A stretch of 15,067 bases of DNA from a virus (IMGVR_UViG_2703718826_000001); one strand, 5' to 3'. Positions 2,295 through 15,067 are shown, counted from the stretch's first letter. The notes: generated by a model not told the origin, from the letters alone. Made by a program: numbers and translations.

Positions 2295-2369
2295 GTCCTC
2301 TTAGTTAAATGGATATAACGAGCCCCTCCTAAGGGCTAATTGCAGGTTCGATTCCTGCAGGGGACACTT
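2295..2369 (+). tRNA. argW: tRNA-Arg (anticodon CCU)
   Basis: Cloverleaf readable by eye: acceptor GTCCTCT pairs with AGGGGAC, anticodon loop CTCCTAA, T-arm GGTTCGATTCC; matches E. coli argW from memory except the last two encoded nt are TT instead of CA (CCA end). Confidence 0.85.
2347..2367 (+). repeat. attL core: 21-bp direct repeat (3' end of argW)
   Basis: TTCGATTCCTGCAGGGGACAC is identical at 2347-2367 and 13946-13966; the first copy is the 3' end of the tRNA gene. Confidence 0.8.
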
Positions 2370-2480
2370 TAAAGACCTTTCTCTACATTTCACTTCATTA
2401 CATAACCACTTAAAAAACAGTAAGTTATCACCGAATCGGCCTGATTTTCATTTCAGTTAATTTCATGACATTACAACCTC

Positions 2481-2530
2481 GTGATGGTATAAGTGATGGT
2501 ATTCCCCAGTTCGATATGCAGATACCATCA
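2481..2530. promoter_or_regulatory. putative integrase arm-type binding sites (TGATGGTAT repeats)
   Basis: GTGATGGTAT at 2481-2490 and 2493-2502 (12-bp spacing) plus an inverted copy ATACCATCA at 2522-2530; the same tandem pair recurs inside the other island end at 13873-13893. Confidence 0.45.
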
Positions 2531-2540
2531 ATTTACCAAA

Positions 2541-3827
2541 ATGAGTACAGATATGGCCATTAATGTGCTTTCCCCCAAACAGATAGAAAACGCCAAGCCG
2601 AAGACCAATGATTACAAACTTACCGATGGAGGGAGTTTGTATCTACTGGTACGAAAGACTGGTGGAAAATACTGGCGTATGAATTATCGTTTTGATGGAA
2701 AACAAGTGACATTGGCATTAGGGGTCTACCCAGATGTCTCACTTGCAACAGCGCGGAAACGGCGTGATGAAGCCAGGCAACTACTAGCCGATGGTCGTGA
2801 TCCTCGCGAAGCAAAGAAACCCAAAAAGGAAGACCCAATTTCCCCCACGTTCGAGAGTGTTGCCAGAGAGTGGCATAGTGGAACGATGGGGCATCCTGAG
2901 TGGAAAGAGATCACCCGTAAAAAAATTCTCCGAGAAATGGAAAACCACCTCTTTCCTGCCATCGGTTCAAAGCCTATCGATACGCTCAAAACCCGTGACT
3001 TGATGCCGATGCTGGTTGAGATGACTGAGAAAGGAATTGGTGCCACAACGAGCCGGGTAAAAACCACTATGACGAGCATCTTCCGTTATGCAGTGCAACG
3101 TGGAATTGTCGATTACAACCCTGCCCACGATCTAAAAGGTGCAATTACGGCCCCCAAAGTACGACATCGCCCCGCACTACCTCTCGAACGTTTACCTGAA
3201 CTGTTAGCGAAAACGAGAAGTTACACGGGAAGACCATTGACTCGCCTAGCAGTTCTCTTTTCCCTGCACACTTTTGTGCGATCCAGCGAACTACGACATG
3301 CCAGATGGGAGGAGATCGACATTGAAAATGGGCTATGGACGATACCAGGACAACGTGAAGAGATCGCAGGGGTTAAATTCTCAGATCGGGGTGCAAAGAT
3401 GGGGGCTGCTCATTATGTCCCGCTATCTAGTCAGGCTATCGGGGTACTGGAGGATATAAGGAAAATCAGTGGTGAATATCTGCTGGTTTTCCCCGGTGAC
3501 AGCAACCCATATAAACCGATGAGCGAAAACACAGTTAATAAAGCACTGCGAACGATGGGTTACGACACTCAAACTGATGTATGCTTGCATGGGTTCAGGG
3601 CGATGGCCTGCTCTGCACTGACCGAATCAGGACTCTGGTCACGCGATGCAGTTGAACGGCAGATGAGTCACCAAGAAAGAAACGAAGTGCGGGCAGCATA
3701 TGTGCATCTTGCGCAGCACATGCAGGAACGCCGCAGAATGATGCAATGGTGGTCTAATTATCTGGAACTAAATAAGGACGAATTTCATGCTCCTTATGAC
3801 TTATCAGGTATTAACATTATCAATTAA
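2541..3827 (+). CDS. P4-type tyrosine integrase (start uncertain: 2493 GTG, 2541 ATG or 2553 ATG)
   Basis: N-terminal AKPK...Y.L.DGGSLYL...KYWRMNYRFDGKQ motif typical of P4-family integrases; C-terminal catalytic-region residues (R in VRSSELRHARWEEID, HGFRAM, AAYVH); located directly 3' of the tRNA; first 48 nt of the ORF overlap the arm-site repeats, so an internal ATG is preferred. Confidence 0.85.
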   Translation: MSTDMAINVLSPKQIENAKPKTNDYKLTDGGSLYLLVRKTGGKYWRMNYRFDGKQVTLALGVYPDVSLATARKRRDEARQLLADGRDPREAKKPKKEDPISPTFESVAREWHSGTMGHPEWKEITRKKILREMENHLFPAIGSKPIDTLKTRDLMPMLVEMTEKGIGATTSRVKTTMTSIFRYAVQRGIVDYNPAHDLKGAITAPKVRHRPALPLERLPELLAKTRSYTGRPLTRLAVLFSLHTFVRSSELRHARWEEIDIENGLWTIPGQREEIAGVKFSDRGAKMGAAHYVPLSSQAIGVLEDIRKISGEYLLVFPGDSNPYKPMSENTVNKALRTMGYDTQTDVCLHGFRAMACSALTESGLWSRDAVERQMSHQERNEVRAAYVHLAQHMQERRRMMQWWSNYLELNKDEFHAPYDLSGINIIN

Positions 3828-3857: not shown

Positions 3858-4739
3858 ATGCAGCATTCAACAGAGAATGAAACTATATTCTTAGGAAATC
3901 TATGGATTGACAAAAAAATACCACCATTAGAATATTGTTCATTTGAACGCGCTTCAAGACTATTAGAATGCGAGATTGATGATTTATTACACCTATACGA
4001 AATAGGCGCTTTTAATATCGCATTCAAGGCGGATGGACTTGCAGTTAGATTTAATGTTAATTTCCTCAATAAAAATCAGAAAATGGAAATTGACTTAATT
4101 CATCCCGTATTAACTAATCAATCACTAGAGATGGAGTTTTCAACAATATGGTATGACCTTAAAGATGATTCCTTTGAACATTTTGAAAATGGGCTTCAAA
4201 TTATAGGATTTGCCTGTGGTATTTGGTACGCCGATGATATGATAAGTGACATAAAAAATGGATTAGCTATAGATCCAGATTATGAATTCAGGCTTAAACC
4301 GGTAAAAATACGAGATAATGTTTTGATGGCAACGGCCTCATATGAAGGAAATAAGGTCATTGATATTCCATTTGAAGATCTTCTTATCATGCGAAGAGAT
4401 TTAGAGTTAATATGGAAATCAGTAAAAACTGGAATTCCTATGCCAAGTTTACTTACGAAAAGAATTTCATCTGAACCTAAAATCCCCAAGCGATTAAATA
4501 ACACTGCTGAGCATCATGCAAAAAATAGGGAGGGGTTATTAAATGCAGCCATATATATTTTAGCAAAATACCCAAGCGAATGTCGTGGTGAAAGAAAAGA
4601 GATAAGTCCTGAAAAGTGGACTAACGCCATAATTAAACATTTAGGAGAGCTACCTCCAATATTTATCACTAATGAACAAGAAATCTTAAGAAAATTACGA
4701 TTAGCGGTTAATCATGCGGGGTTAAAACAAAAGGGGTAG
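3858..4739 (+). CDS. hypothetical protein (AT-rich orphan cargo gene)
   Basis: 293-aa ORF; markedly AT-rich against GC-rich neighbours; no domain recognised. Confidence 0.6.
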   Translation: MQHSTENETIFLGNLWIDKKIPPLEYCSFERASRLLECEIDDLLHLYEIGAFNIAFKADGLAVRFNVNFLNKNQKMEIDLIHPVLTNQSLEMEFSTIWYDLKDDSFEHFENGLQIIGFACGIWYADDMISDIKNGLAIDPDYEFRLKPVKIRDNVLMATASYEGNKVIDIPFEDLLIMRRDLELIWKSVKTGIPMPSLLTKRISSEPKIPKRLNNTAEHHAKNREGLLNAAIYILAKYPSECRGERKEISPEKWTNAIIKHLGELPPIFITNEQEILRKLRLAVNHAGLKQKG

Positions 4740-4805
4740 ACTGAAACAATCTACAGGTAGAGTTGATTACACTACCTTCACAGCATTTTGATATCCCCAT
4801 AGTAT

Positions 4806-4833
4806 CTGCCGTGTTCATTACATAACACGGCAG
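4806..4833 (+). promoter_or_regulatory. inverted repeat (10-bp arms, 8-nt spacer) just upstream of alpA
   Basis: CTGCCGTGTT 4806-4815 and AACACGGCAG 4824-4833; right arm ends 8 nt before the alpA ATG and overlaps the likely ribosome-binding region. Confidence 0.35.
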
Positions 4834-4841
4834 GTAATTTC

Positions 4842-5057
4842 ATGACATTAAAAACTTATCCTATCACTGGACATGCCCGCCCACGAGCTACTGCTGACTT
4901 TTTGCAAATAAGTACGGTTACTCTCTGGCGCTGGGAAAAGAACAATCCTGAATTTCCCAAATCTATACGCATTTCAAAACGGGTATCTGTTTACGATGCA
5001 CAAGAAATTAGGCAGTGGGTTAAAGCTCAATCAGCAGGATTGGAGGAAGTAGTGTAA
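4842..5057 (+). CDS. alpA: AlpA-family phage regulatory protein (excision regulator, HTH)
   Basis: 71-aa ORF; FLQISTVTLWRWEKNNPEFPKSIRISKRVSVYDAQEIRQWV fits the AlpA/Xis-like pattern (T-I/L-Y/W ... FP.P ... R.V.W ... EI..W). Confidence 0.7.
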   Translation: MTLKTYPITGHARPRATADFLQISTVTLWRWEKNNPEFPKSIRISKRVSVYDAQEIRQWVKAQSAGLEEVV

Positions 5058-5106
5058 TGACAATATTAACAAAGCTGGGGAGAAAAAAGCCTCCCCAACG
5101 TATTAA

Positions 5107-5301
5107 TCAATTCTTTGGTTCTAAACCTCGGCTTTGTAACTCTTTGCGTAGAATGCGCTTGATCCAAGCCGCTAGCGATTCATCGCCATCCTGCTGTTGT
5201 GCTTGTTCCATCAGTTCACGCAGTTCAGGGTCAAGTCGGAACTGGAATGGCGGATTCCCACGTCTTTCATTTTTGTGTGTTGACACGTCAATTACACCCA
5301 T
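5107..5301 (-). CDS. putative ribbon-helix-helix (Arc/CopG-like) DNA-binding protein
   Basis: 64-aa ORF; PPFQFRLDPELRELMEQ ... SLAAWIKRILRKEL resembles a beta-strand/helix/helix RHH fold; divergent from the downstream small-gene operon; the competing plus-strand ORF 5057-5407 is Ser/Cys-rich and implausible. Confidence 0.5.
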   Translation of the reverse strand: MGVIDVSTHKNERRGNPPFQFRLDPELRELMEQAQQQDGDESLAAWIKRILRKELQSRGLEPKN

Positions 5302-5334
5302 TGTAATGTATTTATGTGTAATGACACATTACAC
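5289..5334. promoter_or_regulatory. operator-like dyads ATTACA-N5-TGTAAT and TGTAAT-N5-ATTACA in a divergent promoter region
   Basis: ATTACA 5291-5296 / TGTAAT 5302-5307 and TGTAAT 5317-5322 / ATTACA 5328-5333, lying between and over the start of the RHH gene and upstream of the Icd-like gene. Confidence 0.4.
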
Positions 5335-5594: not shown

Positions 5595-5946
5595 TTATCC
5601 GCACCCCGGCGAACGCTGGCAGCATGAACGTGGCTGGACGGTCACGATTATCCGATTAATAGAAGCCTCGCCCTCTGTGGCGCTGGTTAATCCTGAATTC
5701 AGCTGTGAAGTGCTGATACGTCATGACAGCGACAACCAGCTATCCTCCTGCCCTCTGGCATGGTTTGAACAGCGGTATACGCGCCTGTTTGATGTACCGC
5801 TCTTTAAGCCTGCACCAGCTCCTGCAGGCGGTAGTGGTTCCGGCCCGCTGACACTGCATCCGTCTGTGCTATTTATCCGCTGGCGGGAGCGTAGCATATG
5901 GCGCTCTGCTGAGCCTGACGACGGTCACTATTCAAAGTTTCTCTGA
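5587..5946 (+). CDS. hypothetical protein
   Basis: ATG at 5587 preceded by GGAGG at 5-nt spacing; overlaps the preceding stop by 8 nt; no domain recognised. Confidence 0.5.
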   Translation: MRNYPHPGERWQHERGWTVTIIRLIEASPSVALVNPEFSCEVLIRHDSDNQLSSCPLAWFEQRYTRLFDVPLFKPAPAPAGGSGSGPLTLHPSVLFIRWRERSIWRSAEPDDGHYSKFL

Positions 5947-6262: not shown

Positions 6263-6642
6263 ACCAGCCGCAGGTTTCCATTTTCCCGGCAGAAATGACC
6301 ACCGCGCTTTACCGGCGGGCTATTGCTTCAGCATGGCGGCAGAAAATGCTGAACGAAACTGGCAGTGATCAGTATGGTCCGCACAGCCTGACGGTGGAGC
6401 GTATTGAAATGGCCATTGCGCTGCATATCGAGTGCGTACTGATTAACGAGTACGGCGAAGTGCAGGGCGCCGCTGCCGCGCTGGCACTGCTGACTGACAT
6501 GCTGGAGCCGTCACTGCTGACCGCGCCGCCGGTACTGACCGCGCGCGGCTGTGAAGTGATGGCGGAGATGTACCGCACGCTTCCGGCGGCCTTTGATGAC
6601 TTCTGCAGTACCGGTGTGACGTTGTATGAGGGGGAAGTATGA
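6259..6642 (+). CDS. hypothetical protein
   Basis: 127-aa ORF coupled at both ends by ATGA overlaps (6259-6262 and 6639-6642). Confidence 0.6.
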   Translation: MNQPQVSIFPAEMTTALYRRAIASAWRQKMLNETGSDQYGPHSLTVERIEMAIALHIECVLINEYGEVQGAAAALALLTDMLEPSLLTAPPVLTARGCEVMAEMYRTLPAAFDDFCSTGVTLYEGEV

Positions 6643-9311
6643 CAATACAGACGGTTACGCAGATTTCAGCCGCCGCACGGGGGAAATGGCCCGTTATTCT
6701 GCAGATGCTGCGTATTGATGTACCTGAAAACGGCAGGCACGGTCCCTGCCCGAAATGTGGGGGCAAGGATCGTTTTCGCCTTGATGACCTTGACGGGCGC
6801 GGGACGTGGATCTGCAGCCAGTGTGGCAATGGTGACGGTCTGGATCTGGTTAAGCTCGTAACCGGTTACAGCGTCAGAAAGGCTGCGCAGGAGGTGGCGC
6901 AGGTGCTTAATGTGCCGGATGTGCAGGAACTGCCTGTTAAGCCTGCCAGACAAAAAGCCCCTAAACGCGACATGGGTCTTACCGTGGCGGCGCTGATGAA
7001 AGAGAGCCACACGGGAGAAAGCGCCTATCTGACAGGAAAAGGGTTCGCCGGATACCCGGCCTCTCTGACCGGAAGCGTGCAGCATATCAGCGGTAAGGAT
7101 TTTCCTGCCGGTTCCCTGCTGTTACCACTCACGACCAACACCGGAGCCGTGACCGGTGCACAGCTTATCGCCCCGACGGGTGAAAAAAGCATACTGCCCG
7201 GCAGCACGATGAAAGGCGCGTTTGTGTCGCTCAGCCCGTTACCGTCTGAACCACCGGTACAGGTGGTGATTACCGAAGGTTACGCTACGGCGCTGACGGT
7301 AAGCCAGCTCACTGCCGGATGCGTAGTGGCTGCCATATCTGCGGGCAACCTGCCCAATGTGGCGCAGTCGCTGCGGGCACGCTGGCCTGAGGTAAAAATT
7401 ATCATCGCCGGTGATAACGATTTTCAGGACGGGGGTGAGAATCCCGGCAGAGCCTTTGCTGAACGGGCGGCAAAAGCTGTTGGCGGCTGGATGACGCTGC
7501 CACCAGGAGAGATTAAGGCTGACTGGAATGACTTTCATCGGGAGCACGGTATTACCCGTGCCCGTGAAGCCTTTCGCAACGGTCTGGTACTGTGCGGGGA
7601 AGGCCGCACGCAACTGCCGCACGGGTTCCGTCTTACCCAGGAATATCTCTGGTATGAAAAGCAGGTACAGCGCAACGGTGAGACGGAGATCCAGAACGTC
7701 AAAATATGCAGCCCGCTGCGCGTGACGGCAATCACCTGCGATGCCGATGGCGGTAACTTCGGACGACTGCTGGAATGGGAAGATACGTGGGGTGAGTGTC
7801 GCCGCTGGGCGATGCCGATGGAAATGCTGAGCGGCAGTGGTGAGGAACTGCGCCGGGTACTGCTGGTTAACGGGCTGTCTTATATCAGCACCACCGGTGA
7901 GGCACGCGCACGCCTGATGGAATATATCTCACTGTGTAAACCGGAACGCCGCGTGACCTGCGTCAGTCGTACTGGCTGGCATGGTCAGGTTTACGTCCTG
8001 CAGGATGAGGTCAGCGGTGAAGGTGCAGAGGGTGTCATTCTCCAGACCACTTCCGTGCAGGGGCGTGATTTCCGCGTGTCGGGCACAACAGAGGAATGGC
8101 GGGAGCATGTATCCCGCTACTGTACCGGCAACTCCCGCGTGGCATTTGCTGTCAGCCTGGCCTTTGCTGCACCACTGTTACGGCTGGTTGGTATGGACGG
8201 CGGCGGCTACCACCTCAAAGGGGAATCGACAGACGGTAAGACCACCACCATGAAAGCGGCAACCTCCGTCTGCGGCGGGCCTGACTACTGGCAGACATGG
8301 CGGGCCACCGGCAACGCGCTGGAGGGATGCGCCAGCCGCCGCAACGATGCTGCCATGATGCTTGATGAGATCCGGGAAGTTGACGGACGCGAGGCAGGCA
8401 ATATCGCCTACATGCTGGCAAACGGTCAGGGCAAGGGCCGTGCCGGTACGGACGGTGAGCTGCGTACCCGTAAGCAGTGGCGCCTGTTGTTCTTTTCAAC
8501 TGGCGAGTTGTCTCTGACCGAACATGCGGCAAAGGCCGGTGAGCGTACTTTTGCCGGGATGGAAGTCAGGATGATCCAGATCCCCAGCGATTCCGGGAAG
8601 TTTGGCGTTTTTGAGGAGCTGCACGGCTTCGACAGCGGCAAGGCTCTGGCAGAGCATCTTGAATGGGCCACGTCCTGCTACTACGGTTCGCCGTTCCGGG
8701 AGTGGCTGAAAGCACTGACCGCTGATCTTAACGGACTAACGGCACAGGCAAAATCGCTGATGAAGGAATATGCTGCCGCCCTGACTCCTAAAGATGCAGG
8801 CAATCAGGTGGGCCGGGCTGTGAACCGCTTTGCACTGGTGGCGATGGCAGGTGAACTGGCAACCCGTCTGGGTATCACCGGCTGGCCTGAGGGTGAAGCA
8901 CTGCGGGCAACCCGCGTCTGCCTGAACGCATGGCTGAAAGATCGCGGGCACACCGCCAATCAGGAAGATATCGCCGCACTGGAGCAGGTTCGCAGTTTCT
9001 TTACCGCGAATCAGTACAGCCGCTTTGCAGACTGGTATGACGAGCGCAACCGCCCCGGCAATATGGTGGGCTGGCGCAGGGTGGAGAAAGGCAGTACCGC
9101 GCAGGGCACGGAAGCTGTCACTACGTTCTATGTCATGCCGTCCGGCTGGAAAGAAATCTGCAGGGGATTTGACCCGCGCAAGGTGGCGCGTCTGTGCGTA
9201 GATCGTGGATACCTGCTGCCCTCCACTGATGGCAAACTCCAGACAACCATTCGCCCGCCAGAGATGAATCCCCGCAGGCTCTATGTCTTCAACAGCGAGG
9301 TGCCGGGTTAA
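6639..9311 (+). CDS. P4 alpha-like primase-helicase (zinc-ribbon, Toprim, DUF927/D5-like NTPase)
   Basis: 890 aa; N-terminal CPKCGG...CSQCG zinc ribbon; Toprim-like ITEGYATA and AGDND; Walker A KGESTDGKTT near 8221-8247; GC-rich. Confidence 0.9.
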   Translation: MTIQTVTQISAAARGKWPVILQMLRIDVPENGRHGPCPKCGGKDRFRLDDLDGRGTWICSQCGNGDGLDLVKLVTGYSVRKAAQEVAQVLNVPDVQELPVKPARQKAPKRDMGLTVAALMKESHTGESAYLTGKGFAGYPASLTGSVQHISGKDFPAGSLLLPLTTNTGAVTGAQLIAPTGEKSILPGSTMKGAFVSLSPLPSEPPVQVVITEGYATALTVSQLTAGCVVAAISAGNLPNVAQSLRARWPEVKIIIAGDNDFQDGGENPGRAFAERAAKAVGGWMTLPPGEIKADWNDFHREHGITRAREAFRNGLVLCGEGRTQLPHGFRLTQEYLWYEKQVQRNGETEIQNVKICSPLRVTAITCDADGGNFGRLLEWEDTWGECRRWAMPMEMLSGSGEELRRVLLVNGLSYISTTGEARARLMEYISLCKPERRVTCVSRTGWHGQVYVLQDEVSGEGAEGVILQTTSVQGRDFRVSGTTEEWREHVSRYCTGNSRVAFAVSLAFAAPLLRLVGMDGGGYHLKGESTDGKTTTMKAATSVCGGPDYWQTWRATGNALEGCASRRNDAAMMLDEIREVDGREAGNIAYMLANGQGKGRAGTDGELRTRKQWRLLFFSTGELSLTEHAAKAGERTFAGMEVRMIQIPSDSGKFGVFEELHGFDSGKALAEHLEWATSCYYGSPFREWLKALTADLNGLTAQAKSLMKEYAAALTPKDAGNQVGRAVNRFALVAMAGELATRLGITGWPEGEALRATRVCLNAWLKDRGHTANQEDIAALEQVRSFFTANQYSRFADWYDERNRPGNMVGWRRVEKGSTAQGTEAVTTFYVMPSGWKEICRGFDPRKVARLCVDRGYLLPSTDGKLQTTIRPPEMNPRRLYVFNSEVPG

Positions 9312-9345
9312 GGCTTTGCGTGAGTCTTATTTATTAAGGGTAACA

Positions 9346-9533
9346 GGTGAAACAGGTGGAACAACCGTATTTTACAGGGCTGAACCTGATCCACCTTCTG
9401 AAATAGTGAGGTGGAACAGATGTAACGCCAGCCAATCCGCTGTTCCACCTTGTTACCCGCGATGTTCCACCGGTGCAGTGTATATAAATGCCTTATAAAA
9501 CAAAGCAGTAACACATGTTTCACCTGTTCCACC
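9346..9533. repeat. iteron cluster (putative replication origin / crr-like region)
   Basis: Seven copies of the 9-mer GGTG(G/A)AACA: plus orientation at 9346-9354, 9355-9363, 9410-9418; reverse complement at 9441-9449, 9463-9471, 9516-9524, 9525-9533; an AT-rich stretch at 9481-9500 lies between them; immediately 3' of the primase-helicase gene. Confidence 0.6.
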
Positions 9534-9621
9534 GCATCAGGGACATAAAGCAGACTGAAACAGAGGGTATTTTTATCTGGCTGGCTTTCATAGCCACGTC
9601 TGAATAACCGCAAGCGCCCGT

Positions 9622-10455: not shown

Positions 10456-11003
10456 CGGCCCGAGGCACACCTGACCAGGCACTTACCAGTTTTCGGAATG
10501 CCCGTATTCTGTGGGCCGGACATAGTGAGAGCCGAAAAGCCGTTGAACAACAGATAACATCTCTCCTCGCTGCCACAGAAAAACCAGCAGATTATGCCCG
10601 ACAGCTCGAATTACTGCGGGAACGTCTGGATGTGCTGAAATGGCAAATTAACTGTGCTGCTCGGGAATGCATTTACTCGCAGCATTTATTGATGGAGGCC
10701 TGCACAGAAGCTGCTCTCAGCAATTTTATGCAGGCGAATGGGGCAGCCCTGACATCTGCACTGGCTCCGTTCCTGAAGGGGCGCGGAGGGGTTGACGTTG
10801 CGTCCCGTATATTACGCAGTGCTCTGGTTCGCCAGCTGGCAATAACACCGCCTGAAATTGCCGGGGATTATCGTGAGATCCTGGATGAATCCGGTTTGAT
10901 GCCAGACCCCGGGATGATTCGTGATTGCCAGGGCTCTTACACCCCGGCACAACATCTGCGTTTTCAGCAACGCCTGAATGACATTAACGATATACAGGAG
11001 TGA
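10452..11003 (+). CDS. psu: Psu-like polarity suppression / capsid decoration protein
   Basis: 183 aa; motifs KWQIN, FMQANGAALTSALAP and YTPAQ match my recollection of P4 Psu; AAGGAG upstream; start overlaps the previous stop (ATGA). Confidence 0.65.
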   Translation: MTARGTPDQALTSFRNARILWAGHSESRKAVEQQITSLLAATEKPADYARQLELLRERLDVLKWQINCAARECIYSQHLLMEACTEAALSNFMQANGAALTSALAPFLKGRGGVDVASRILRSALVRQLAITPPEIAGDYREILDESGLMPDPGMIRDCQGSYTPAQHLRFQQRLNDINDIQE

Positions 11004-11008
11004 TATTA

Positions 11009-11281
11009 ATGGCACTTAAATGTCCGGAATGCGGTACAGTTGCACACGCCAGAACAGCAGCCTATGAAGCTCCGTCAGTTAAACGCTCGTGGTATCAGTG
11101 CCAGAATCTGGAATGTTCCTGCACATTTACGGCACTGGAGAGTGTGGATAAGATAATCATGAAACCCCGGCGCAATGAACAGGAACCAGACAAATCACAA
11201 ACCCCGGTAAAACAACAGCAAACGCTCAATCGCTATGGCTCCGCGTCAAAACTGTCAAGCCGTCAGCAGATTCCTGTCTAA
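11009..11281 (+). CDS. Ogr/Delta-family zinc-finger late transcription activator
   Basis: CPECG...AHARTAAY...YQCQNLECSCTF...ESV closely resembles P2 Ogr (CPLC...AHARTSRY...YHQCQNVNCSATF...ESV); AGGAG 8 nt upstream of the ATG at 11009. Confidence 0.85.
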   Translation: MALKCPECGTVAHARTAAYEAPSVKRSWYQCQNLECSCTFTALESVDKIIMKPRRNEQEPDKSQTPVKQQQTLNRYGSASKLSSRQQIPV

Positions 11282-13377: not shown

Positions 13378-13872
13378 GCTTAAATTATAAAAACATTTCA
13401 GGTTTGATTTAGATAACACGCAAATAAAAAACAAACTAATGAAATATATAAATTAATTCTTAGGTATAAAATGTTACAATTAGAATATATTTAATTTTTA
13501 ACTTTAAATCATGATAAATCTAAAAGTAAGCACCCAAAAAACCTTCAAAACACAATACGTCGTGTCTCAACCCCATGGTATTTAGGGTTAAACCAAGTTA
13601 TAGCGCTGACTGGTGAGCGGTTTGAAGTCATTCTGGTATACATAAAATGAAAAAATACATTGGGAGATATACCCCTGACTTACAGAGCTGGTAACGGTTA
13701 CCAAGTCGCATTGTGTAATGCGTGGGGTGTAAAATTTTTTGGGTATTTTTTATCCAGTAGCAGGTTAGCCTGCCCCCCCTGCTCCTAACGTTCTTTCATT
13801 CCTCTTTTCATCATTTTTAGAACGATATAAACAGATGGATCTCTATGGTTTTAATGAGTCGATTTTATCGTC

Positions 13873-13893
13873 TGATGGTATCCATGATGGTAC
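13873..13893 (+). promoter_or_regulatory. putative integrase arm-type sites at the attR end
   Basis: TGATGGTAT 13873-13881 and TGATGGTAC 13885-13893, same motif and 12-bp spacing as at 2481-2502. Confidence 0.45.
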
Positions 13894-13945
13894 CTAAGAG
13901 AGAAAATAAAAAATAATACTTAAAAAACATGAAATTATAAATACT

Positions 13946-13966
13946 TTCGATTCCTGCAGGGGACAC
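13946..13966 (+). repeat. attR core: 21-bp direct repeat (partial tRNA 3' end); probably also the attL of the next island
   Basis: Identical to 2347-2367; here followed by CA (13967-13968), i.e. the canonical tRNA CCA end. Confidence 0.8.
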
Positions 13967-14143
13967 CATGCACACCTCTCCTGAAATCTACCATACCCCA
14001 CAAAAAGCCTTTATAATCAGCACATACCCTTACTTATGTTACTCAAATAGTCGCCTTAATTCTCCTCAGGGGAACGTAAATCAAGTCACATTTGGGGGCC
14101 TATTTAGGGGCACATCTTGGTCAATCTATTGCGAGGCCCCCAG

Positions 14144-15067
14144 ATGCCACTGACAGCTCGACAAGTTGAAACAGCCAAACCCAAAGATAAAATTTATAAG
14201 ATTGCCGATGGTGGTGGGCTCTACCTTCAGGTCAATCCTAACGGCTCAAAGTACTGGCGAATGAAGTACCACTATGCGGGGAAGGAAAAGAAACTATCAT
14301 TTGGCACCTATCCAACTATTACATTGGCTGAAGCTCGCAAACGTCGGGATGAAGCCAAGAAAATACATGCCGATGGTAAAGATCCCGGTGAAGTCAAGAA
14401 AGCTGAAAATCTTGAGAAAAACCTTTCCGAAGGAAGAACTTTTGCCGCAATCGCCACCGAGTGGTACAACGCAAAAGTTTCAGGCTGGTCTGCCAGCTAC
14501 GCTGATTATGTCGACAGAGCATTCAAAAATAATGTGTTTCCCTACATTGGAAACAGACCCATTAGTGAAATCGAACCTCTTGAACTTCTCGCAGTTCTTC
14601 AGCGTATCGAAAGCCGAGGAGCCTGCGAGCTAGCTAATAAAGTTCGCCAACGATGTGGTGAAGTGTTTCGGTATGCCATTGTTACAGGTCGGGCACGATA
14701 CAATCCAGCTTCTGATCTGGTTATAGCAATGAAAAGCTATAAGCGAACACATTACCCTTTCCTGCTTCCTCCTGAACTACCAGAGTTTTTATACAAACTC
14801 GAAAACTACACCGGCAGTATTGTAACCCGTGAAGCTACAAAATTGTTGATGCTCACAGGGCTGAGAACAGTAGAATTACGTATGGGGGAATGGTGTGAGA
14901 TCGATTTTACCCAAAAGATATGGGAAGTTCCTCCGACCCGGATGAAAATGAGGAAGGAGCATATCGTCCCTCTGTCAGATCAGGCAATCCAGTCTCTGCA
15001 AATCCTCAAAGAACTGACTGGAAGATACAGATACATCTTTGCCGGAATGGATTTGCCCCTATATTTC
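14144..15067 (+). CDS. second P4-type tyrosine integrase, 3'-truncated by the window end
   Basis: Hand translation from ATG 14144 gives MPLTARQVETAKPKDKIYKIADGGGLYLQVNPNGSKYWRMKYHYAGKEKKLSFGTYP...LTGLRTVELRMGEWCEIDF... with no stop to 15067 (308 codons); N-terminus parallels the first integrase; absent from the ORF track for lack of a stop codon. Confidence 0.85.
   Translation, partial: MPLTARQVETAKPKDKIYKIADGGGLYLQVNPNGSKYWRMKYHYAGKEKKLSFGTYPTITLAEARKRRDEAKKIHADGKDPGEVKKAENLEKNLSEGRTFAAIATEWYNAKVSGWSASYADYVDRAFKNNVFPYIGNRPISEIEPLELLAVLQRIESRGACELANKVRQRCGEVFRYAIVTGRARYNPASDLVIAMKSYKRTHYPFLLPPELPEFLYKLENYTGSIVTREATKLLMLTGLRTVELRMGEWCEIDFTQKIWEVPPTRMKMRKEHIVPLSDQAIQSLQILKELTGRYRYIFAGMDLPLYF

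Follow-up and report, generated by a model that had tools for sequence, protein, structure and literature searches.

The window, by which we mean the whole stretch of 15,067 nucleotides that we analyzed, is E. coli chromosome: mlaA, yfdC (1287-2219) and argW, followed by an 11.6-kb element. The element is a P4-like satellite prophage integrated in argW, an assignment that rests on int, alpA, the primase gene, two Psu/Sid genes and delta, together with the 21-bp att cores at the tRNA gene (Table 1). Its integrase is 52% identical to that of P4; an alternative in-frame ATG for int lies at 2541. Another P4-type integrase gene begins at 14144, so that two islands lie in tandem at argW. Of 5,426 complete E. 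coli genomes, 63 carry a near-identical copy of the segment from int to alpA.

Table 1. Features of the argW element and its attachment sites, with positions counted from the first letter of the window
Feature	Position	Strand	Remarks
tRNA-Arg(CCT) gene argW	2295..2367	+	Integration target; ARAGORN; Rfam tRNA match, 63 bits; yfdC flank in annotated E. coli record
attL core, 21 bp	2347..2367	+	TTCGATTCCTGCAGGGGACAC; exact repeat of attR core
Box I	2377..2406	+	Phased TTCA-type direct repeats, including block 1 (2394-2406)
Box II	2450..2475	+	Includes block 2 (2458-2473); TTCA at 2452 and 2462, then TGACA, TTACA
Predicted int promoter	2465..2493	+	-35 ATGACA 2465-2470, 17-bp spacer, -10 TATAAG 2488-2493; from sequence
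Two tandem 12-bp integrase arm-type repeats	2481..2504	+	GTGATGGTATAA, GTGATGGTATTC; layout as in annotated P4 attP
Inverted arm-type repeat	2522..2530	-	GATACCATC; directly upstream of int start
int, P4-family tyrosine integrase gene	2553..3827	+	Pfam Arm-DNA-bind_3, Phage_int_M, Phage_integrase; annotated CDS in L001
orf293			Unknown 293-aa ORF between int and alpA
Extra motif copy	4763..4774	+	TTGATTACACTA; 0 mismatches to TTSATTACAYWA; just upstream of predicted alpA -35
Predicted alpA promoter	4777..4805	+	TTCACA-17-TAGTAT; consensus scan, weak match
Conserved hairpin	4803..4836	+	13-bp stem 4803-4815 / 4824-4836; arms CTGCCGTG / CACGGCAG, loop CAUUACAU
Block 1, alpA-proximal copy	4814..4826	+	TTCATTACATAAC; hairpin loop plus neighbouring stem bases
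Block 2, alpA-proximal copy	4835..4850	+	TAATTTCATGACATTA; spacer, start codon, codons 2-3
alpA	4842..5057	+	71-aa AlpA/Vis-family winged-HTH protein; Pfam PF05930, E = 1.6e-7
YlcI/YnfO-like gene	5107-5301	-	Divergent
Operator of divergent ylcI-like / icd-like genes	5291..5333		CATTACA half-sites in inverted orientation
Icd-like and DUF5375 genes			Further element genes
Toprim/DUF927 primase gene	6639-9311		Alpha-type
Two Psu/Sid-family genes			
Ogr/Delta-like gene	11000-11281		
P-arm integrase arm-type repeats	13874..13893	+	GATGGTAT ccat GATGGTAC (N4 gap); attR side; oriented and laid out as P4 P-arm repeats
attR core, 21 bp	13946..13966	+	TTCGATTCCTGCAGGGGACAC; identical to attL core

Two short blocks upstream of int recur exactly at the start of alpA. 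Block 1 is a 13-mer and block 2 a 16-mer, and the ATG in the downstream copy of block 2 (4842-4844) is the alpA start codon. The blocks keep the same order and strand at both places, with a gap of 51 bp in attL and 8 bp at alpA. The sequence-only reading had reported these coordinates, orientations and spacings, and all of them are confirmed in the sequence. Both blocks are variants of a single motif, TTCAT[T/G]ACAT[A/T]A, with four exact copies, all on the + strand. We shuffled the window 300 times with its dinucleotide composition preserved: 2.3% of the shuffles contained a repeated 16-mer, and none contained a collinear pair of repeats of at least 12 nucleotides within 100 bp; repeated 13-mers averaged 2.6, so one alone is unremarkable. 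The duplicated blocks are real and non-random. An Rfam scan of the window passed the tRNA alone and gave no match at E <= 1 near the blocks. A C4/CI-type immunity RNA, considered as a source of repeated seqA/seqC-like blocks, was rejected because Rfam returned only the tRNA.

The int-proximal blocks occupy the part of the attL P' arm that separates the 21-bp core from the integrase arm-type repeats. This placement, like the single motif behind both blocks and the hairpin at alpA described below, went unremarked in the sequence-only reading. Across the attachment site the order is P-arm tandem repeats, core, Box I, Box II, the tandem 12-bp pair, a conserved TTCGAT, the inverted repeat and the int start. 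The units of Box I are TTCT at 2379 (TTCA in relatives), TTCA at 2389 and 2394, and TACA at 2399. The window thus has TTTCT at 2378-2382 where its relatives carry TTTCA. The predicted int promoter overlaps both Box II and the first arm repeat, and its predicted start lies near 2500.

With AlpA as query, we gathered int-alpA modules located at argW; their sources were E. coli, Pantoea, Enterobacter, Buttiauxella, IMG/VR and metagenomes. The set comprises 29 distinct sequences in 17 lineages, with Int 74-100% and AlpA 64-100% identical to the proteins of the window; a single-AlpA genome scan gave three close relatives, and alignment-based viral and metagenome scans supplied the others. AlpA is encoded in all 17 lineages. 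A tblastn search of a phage collection with AlpA returned one weak Pseudomonas phage match and did not find P4 Vis.

Within the attL arm, the most conserved element other than the arm sites is TTCATGACATT (2462-2472, in Box II), which is invariant in all 29 sequences while the spacer around it varies. When the core, the arm sites and TTCGATA are left aside, the attL stretches kept in at least 16 of the 17 lineages are TTTCA at 2378-2382, TTCA at 2389-2392, TTCA at 2452-2455 and TTCATGACATT. The TTCA units have a strong orientation: in the attL arms of 12 lineages, 72 lie on the + strand and 7 on the - strand, with neighbours spaced by 5 or 10 bp in two clusters. The exact block 1 13-mer is restricted at attL to the lineage of the window. 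Variants of it occur in L035 and L047-49 (GTCATTACACAA) and in L044 (TTCATCACTT), and the remaining lineages have other phased TTCA units at this position.

The ATGACA and TATNNT hexamers of the predicted int promoter and their 17-bp spacing are retained in all lineages; in a consensus promoter scan, the int -10 hexamer TATAAG did not meet the scanner's rule. The invariance of Box II could in part reflect its role as a -35 element. Separately, we asked whether the ATG of attL block 2 opens a conserved small ORF. Its frame is open in 17 of 17 lineages, which is not significant: the variable part is short, and stops in the other frames coincide with conserved binding sites. The encoded peptide is conserved no more than the DNA sites impose.

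Two natural variants bear on the arm repeats. In L008, a Buttiauxella element, the three P' arm repeats switch jointly to GCGGGTAT and inverted GATACCCGC, and L099, an E. coli genome, has three tandem 12-bp arm units instead of two. Both variants support GATGGTAT as the integrase arm site. Since Box II stays unchanged in L008 while the arm repeats change, the boxes would not themselves be integrase arm sites.

The motif shared by the two blocks is concentrated in the two regions where they occur. Allowing one mismatch at most, TTCATNACAT has a density of 13.2 matches per kb in attL arms, 15.8 in alpA leaders and 0.08-0.18 in the rest of the same loci. This more than 100-fold enrichment in both regions is partly circular, since the lineages have a common ancestry and the window itself supplied the motif. 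Fifty-four matches lie on the + strand and none on the - strand, and several fall at non-homologous positions. With that reservation, the motif is enriched across related elements upstream of both int and alpA, on one strand, in line with the sequence-only reading.

A direct link between the two regions within one element has a narrower distribution. The best 12-mer match between attL and alpA beats shuffles (p <= 0.04) in the window, L003, L035, L006, L020 and L007, and is not significant in L037 (p = 0.32) or in nine long-loop lineages. The link is seen only in lineages whose AlpA is at least 84% identical to that of the window, plus L007. In the nine long-loop lineages AlpA is 64-71% identical, the alpA leader has ATGATTACAC-type or AATCACAT motifs, and Box II is unchanged. 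Block 2 at alpA is likewise retained, with single changes, only where AlpA is at least 84% identical, and its conservation in this close group is within what neutral divergence allows. Outside the set, the best 12-mer match between the P4 attP-int interval and the region upstream of vis was 10/12 against a null mean of 9.5, which is not significant. A distant alpA-like clade integrated at ssrA (L055, L062, L083, L085) has three CCCGGA direct repeats upstream of the gene and none in the attL-int interval. Given that P4 has no long shared block and that the upstream repeats of the ssrA clade are absent from its attL, the exact duplication is, on this comparison, a property of the window's lineage and not a general rule. 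The P4 result also implies that exact identity over 13 and 16 nucleotides exceeds what typical degenerate sites of a recombination directionality factor (RDF) would give.

Enrichment, strand bias and conservation are best explained by a common sequence-specific factor, most plausibly AlpA. The boxes share three features with RDF arrays: they lie in an att arm, they are phased direct repeats in one orientation, and the element carries a gene for a small winged-HTH candidate RDF. AlpA matches PDB 8c3t ('AlpA family phage regulatory protein') at E = 1e-3, and across six aligned lineages the region predicted to contact DNA (S24, V26-W31) does not vary. We therefore favor, with a probability of roughly 0.55, a reading in which the blocks are binding boxes for AlpA, the element's own RDF and regulator, serving excision, int repression and alpA autoregulation. 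On this explanation AlpA would correspond to P4 Vis and be functionally analogous to KplE1 TorI. The proposal of a shared regulatory module linking int and alpA, made in the sequence-only reading, thus survives in that the sharing is non-random and points to a common factor, with AlpA the most plausible one; its reach is limited, the sharing being significant only in lineages with a close AlpA and in L007.

If AlpA is the binding protein, the further steps can be proposed by analogy. AlpA monomers would bind head-to-tail on the phased TTCA-type repeats of Box I and Box II and bend the arm, and the bent attL arm would aid integrase in assembling the excisive attL x attR complex. AlpA on Box II would lower int transcription, because Box II overlaps the predicted int -35. 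Int may repress its own gene through the first arm repeat, which overlaps the predicted -10. The primary role of the attL boxes is probably excision, with int regulation as a by-product. At alpA, the pair of blocks spans about +2 to +38 of the predicted promoter, whose start would lie near 4812, and AlpA bound there would cover the leader and start codon and exert feedback on its own expression. The position of these copies suggests repression, whereas the AlpA of EcCICFT073 activates its own promoter.

The alpA leader has structure of its own, and this structure bears on whether the alpA-proximal copies act as DNA or as RNA. The conserved hairpin folds as RNA at -19.7 kcal/mol (z = -4.8). Across the 17 lineages, 91.9% of its cells are paired, a value matched in 0 of 500 shuffles and compared with 20-52% in slid controls. 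Four pairs show double changes (CG<->UA, GC<->AU) with G-U intermediates; RNAalifold was also run. The 3' arm spans the alpA Shine-Dalgarno AGG (4832-4834). Thirteen of the 17 lineages carry TTNATTAC in the loop, and the other four carry AATCAC. Most lineages have a -10-like NANNAT hexamer next to the 5' arm despite non-homologous upstream DNA. Between the window and L003/L005-type elements, homology starts at 4804, just 5' of the inverted repeat, which indicates that the hairpin moves together with alpA. The extra motif copy TTGATTACACTA is retained only where the upstream segment is common, namely in L006 (with one change) and L035.

On the reading that we prefer, the hairpin would mask the ribosome-binding site when transcription reads through from int and orf293, whereas transcripts from alpA's own promoter would start inside the 5' arm and could not form it. 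Davis, Simons and Kleckner reportedly described, in 1985, such a fold-back inhibition of transposase translation in IS10 and IS50. The likeness is that an RBS-hiding hairpin can form only in transcripts begun upstream of the gene's own promoter; the analogy is limited to the alpA leader hairpin, and the alpA start site is here predicted.

A rival account, which we consider unlikely, is that the attL boxes alone are AlpA protein sites and the alpA copies act as an RNA hairpin and initiation region, with the hairpin sequestering the Shine-Dalgarno in int/orf293 read-through. The resemblance to attL would then be secondary, or would reflect RNA binding by AlpA of the kind reported for P4 Vis. The stability of the fold, its compensatory changes, its placement over the Shine-Dalgarno, the recurrent NANNAT hexamer beside unrelated upstream DNA and the 4804 breakpoint all fit such an account, as do the post-transcriptional control of Int by Vis and the binding of RNA by Vis reported in PMC2951348 and PMC2603039. 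It leaves unexplained, however, the collinear identity of a 13-mer and a 16-mer with attL and the strand-specific motif in both regions. It also relies on a predicted alpA start site, few independent events lie behind the covariation, and L007 has the motif yet no hairpin. A mixed form is possible, if equally tentative: AlpA may act twice through one element, on DNA in attL and on RNA at the alpA hairpin loop and start codon, while the hairpin would insulate alpA from constitutive read-through out of int and orf293. In a variant of this idea, attL block 2 may be a duplicated translation-initiation region that couples translation of int and alpA; the frame begun by its ATG is uninterrupted in every one of the 17 lineages, and its end generally overlaps the int start codon.

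We also doubt that some factor besides AlpA, such as a host nucleoid protein (H-NS, IHF or Fis) or the integrase, occupies the boxes, or that Box II is kept simply as the int -35. The box sequences are AT-rich, H-NS silences the CP4So alpA promoter (PMC5148205), and IHF is active at a P4-type int promoter in PAI I-536 (PMC7286903). Box II remains constant while AlpA spans 64-100% identity, a pattern that would fit a host factor or RNA polymerase, and ATGACA-17-TATNNT is conserved in every lineage. But a -35 hexamer covers 6 conserved bases, not the 11-14 seen here. The IHF consensus is WATCAANNNNTTR, and the boxes, read by eye, do not match it. H-NS sites are degenerate and free of orientation, whereas the block motif is one-stranded and phased. 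The arm specificity of integrase is explained by GATGGTAT, whose change in L008 is independent of the boxes.

That the identity is a functionless by-product of history, left by local duplication, gene conversion or chance in AT-rich DNA, is very improbable. Such an origin would agree with the confinement of the exact attL 13-mer to one lineage, with the ordinary frequency of a lone repeated 13-mer and with the lack of such identity in P4. It does not account for the collinear pair, absent from all 300 shuffles, or for the invariance of Box II across 17 lineages. Among 13 near-identical sequences (the window, six IMG/VR sequences and six metagenome contigs, with Int 99-100% and AlpA 100% identical) and L099, the variable sites lie in the spacer and none in the blocks. 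Moreover, a T->C difference between lineages is found in both copies at once: both block 1 copies read CATTACATAA in the window and CATTACACAA in L035. Chance in particular is rejected by the shuffles of the window, both for the collinear pair (0/300) and for the heptamer considered next (0/200).

The heptamer CATTACA, counted with its complement, occurs 8 times in the window against 2.2 expected, and none of 200 shuffles reached 8. Of these copies, the blocks account for three and the 5291-5333 operator for three more, as two clusters; the other two are at background level. The last copy, which the sequence-only reading put at 13713-13719, is actually at 13714-13720. The CATTACA operator is found in six lineages with YlcI 90-100% identical to that of the window; in L005, L035 and L038, YlcI is 57% identical and the operator is replaced by ATGGTAATTACCAT. 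L005 and L035 nevertheless retain window-type alpA blocks. Conversely, L007 has a 98%-identical YlcI and the CATTACA operator with a divergent alpA leader. In nine lineages without a ylcI-like gene, attL Box II is retained and the alpA leader contains an ATTACA-like motif; 8 of these 9 also retain the alpA hairpin stem (weak in L042). The operator, unlike the blocks, tracks the YlcI variant, and the CATTACA excess, though real in number, thus merges two unrelated clusters. We take the operator, on these swaps, to be a separate system outside the block module. The idea that the YlcI/YnfO-like protein ('RHH') binds the blocks and co-represses int, alpA and the early operon through CATTACA, which drew on this excess and on the resemblance of the operator half-site TCATTACACA (5315-5324, - strand) to the block motif, is contradicted by these natural module swaps and by the arrangement of the operator as inverted repeats and the blocks as direct repeats, and we give it almost no credence.

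The reading of the blocks as AlpA boxes can be set beside several known systems, P4 among them. Like the element described here, P4 is a satellite with int, alpA/vis, an alpha-type primase, sid/psu and delta. Its attP likewise carries a pair of tandem repeats on each side of the core, followed by a single inverted repeat at the int start, and its int promoter overlaps the arm repeats. In the P4 core-to-int interval there are two boxes, as in our element; Cali is said to have assigned two boxes between core and int to Vis in 2004. Vis also acts on promoters (the late promoters and Pint), as we propose for AlpA. The differences are several. The AlpA of the window is 23% identical to Vis, and the boxes of P4, as read from its sequence, are apparently of a TCCGAG or GTCC type, compared with the TTCA and ATTACA types here. 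The alpA gene lies directly downstream of int and orf293 rather than in the PLL late-operon position. Our element carries a YlcI-like/icd module, and Rfam detected no CI/C4-type immunity RNA in it. Finally, the att and alpA copies are exact here, whereas P4 has no long shared block, so that the analogy with Vis rests on position and architecture. In P4 itself, Vis has been shown by EMSA and footprinting to bind the attP region (PMC2603039). Int and Vis each lower int expression, and Vis also binds RNA (PMC2951348).

KplE1 (CPS-53), also integrated at argW, offers a parallel in layout. PMC2951348 describes in its attL five short direct-repeat TorI sites, placed between the core and the P' arm sites and grouped into two blocks at a distance of about 63 bp; the second block adjoins the -35 of the mapped promoter PintS, the first Int arm site overlaps the -10, and intS is repressed by both TorI and IntS. 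An integrase promoter set within attL and repressed by Int and the RDF is the Panis 2010 paradigm. Block starts are about 63 bp apart in KplE1 and 68 bp apart in our element, and the predicted int promoter layout here matches that of the mapped PintS (PMC2951348). The two systems differ in their RDF and Int families, in motif (GTTCG, GATCG and GTCCG pentamers in KplE1) and in the position of torI at the far end of the prophage. The excerpted text of PMC2951348 mentions no duplicated site set at the torI start.

More generally, the sites of RDFs are usually direct repeats at intervals of roughly one helical turn (PMC7498355), and several of these proteins also regulate promoters (PMC7498355, PMC11963761). 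In 186 and P2, Apl and Cox are each a small protein that acts on direct-repeat arrays at att and at a promoter, coupling excision to transcription (PMC7498355), as AlpA may do. Unlike AlpA, they belong to another protein family, and their targets are the promoters of the lytic/lysogenic switch, not the leader of the RDF gene. The AlpA proteins of EcCICFT073, a Gram-negative PICI, and of CP4-57/CP4So-type prophages belong to the same Pfam family as that of our element; their over-production triggers int-dependent excision, and they act on their own promoters (PMC6092414, PMC5148205). CP4So AlpA is an excisionase (PMC5148205). EcCICFT073 AlpA activates its own promoter and triggers int-dependent excision; this positive autoregulation, with Pint unaffected, sets it apart from the scheme proposed here (PMC6092414). 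The excerpted texts of PMC6092414 and PMC5148205 do not define AlpA binding sites.

An excisionase-box design is already known from P4 and KplE1, and the feature that we describe, most likely of this kind, is real but fairly ordinary. The result leaves the current view of RDF biology unchanged. If AlpA binds the boxes, the element would provide an unusually clean, sequence-defined case in which one small protein couples excision, repression of integrase and its own expression. In the portions available of the literature cited here, no AlpA binding sites are defined in P4-like satellites. The sites are exact and easily mutated, and natural variants are at hand in the 17 lineages, including the variant with three arm repeats and the lineage with re-specified arm sites. 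P4-like satellites abound in Enterobacteriaceae, and the motif and the leader hairpin offer targets for studying how helper phages switch these satellites on.

The integrase (Int) arm sites vary naturally among relatives of this P4-like element. In a Buttiauxella relative (L008, 3560-3640), all three P' arm-type sites are altered jointly, from GATGGTAT / GATACCATC to GCGGGTAT / GATACCCGC, yet Box II, the attL P'-arm cluster that is a candidate AlpA site, is unaltered. This joint change beside a constant Box II suggests that the arm-binding domain of the L008 integrase has been re-specified. The Int arm sites also differ in copy number: an E. coli relative (L099, CM148320, 2715-2750) carries three tandem 12-bp repeats, GTGATGGTATAA, instead of two. 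The TTCGAT that separates the direct arm repeats from the inverted one is invariant in 17/17 lineages with related int-alpA modules at argW; P4 itself (L002, about 3933-3938) has it at the same relative place as the window.

Positions of sequence features in the window
Feature	Position	Sequence	Location or orientation
Att-arm 11-mer	2408-2418; 13918-13928	ACTTAAAAAAC	each att arm, identical orientation
Frame from attL block 2 ATG	2465-2563	MTLQPRDGISDGI...	
Invariant hexamer	2510-2515	TTCGAT	between direct and inverted arm repeats
10-bp inverted repeat	4766-4775; 5049-5058	ATTACACTAC / GTAGTGTAAT	both sides of alpA
Conserved 13-bp hairpin	4803-4836		directly 5' of alpA
Intergenic operator	5291-5333		ylcI-like / icd-like
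Inverted repeat arrays	9342-9536	GGTGAAACA / GGTGGAACA type	between primase and sid-like genes
Second island, P4-like arm repeats	14091-14114	TTTGGGGGCCTA / TTTAGGGGCACA	
Second island, inverted arm repeat	14133-14144	GAGGCCCCCAGA	
Second P4-type integrase gene	starts 14144 (region 14091-15067)		directly after attR

The 11-mer common to both att arms may serve for DNA bending or bind a host factor. Relatives keep an akin sequence, CTTAAAA(A/C)CAG, and in the distant ssrA-integrated clade a similar one, CCTTAAAAAAGCC, comes after a TTCAT-rich palindrome. Members of this clade (L055, L062, L083, L085) also have three CCCGGA direct repeats, spaced by about 20 bp, upstream of the alpA-like gene (about 5840-5910); the integration site is ssrA for L062, whose attL arm recurs in the other three. 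The CCCGGA repeats are absent from the attL-int interval of these four elements and are likely sites for the clade's alpA-like protein.

Block 1, one of two sequences duplicated between attL and alpA, forms the loop of the alpA leader hairpin, and the Shine-Dalgarno AGG of alpA lies within the 3' arm. The hairpin shows covariation across the 17 lineages, G-U intermediates included, and in L006, L020 and L037 its stem reaches 12-13 bp, taking in a -10-like hexamer. One possible role of the hairpin is to shield alpA translation from read-through arriving from upstream. The inverted repeat flanking alpA has each arm in a motif-like copy (TTGATTACACTA upstream; GTCATTACACTA at the stop codon, - strand), and is no more than chance expects of a 10-mer.

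The frame begun within attL block 2, the other duplicated sequence, remains open for 25-48 codons in 16/17 lineages; in the remaining one, L043, it forms an in-frame fusion with int. In most lineages its end overlaps the int ATG; in L004, L040 and L042 it stops 12-13 nt short of that codon. The alpA product likewise starts MTL. This open frame is not statistically compelling, because other-frame stops fall in conserved protein sites.

The probable replication origin is the set of inverted arrays between the primase and sid-like genes, which look like type 1 repeats of the P4 ori (GGTGAACA). Beyond attR, the second integrase gene with its own arm repeats places two islands in tandem at argW. 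The ylcI-like / icd-like operator is exchanged as a unit along with the YlcI variant. In the window it holds CATTACA inverted repeats; L005, L035 and L038 carry ATGGTAATTACCAT instead. This swap is a clean natural example of repressor-operator co-variation.
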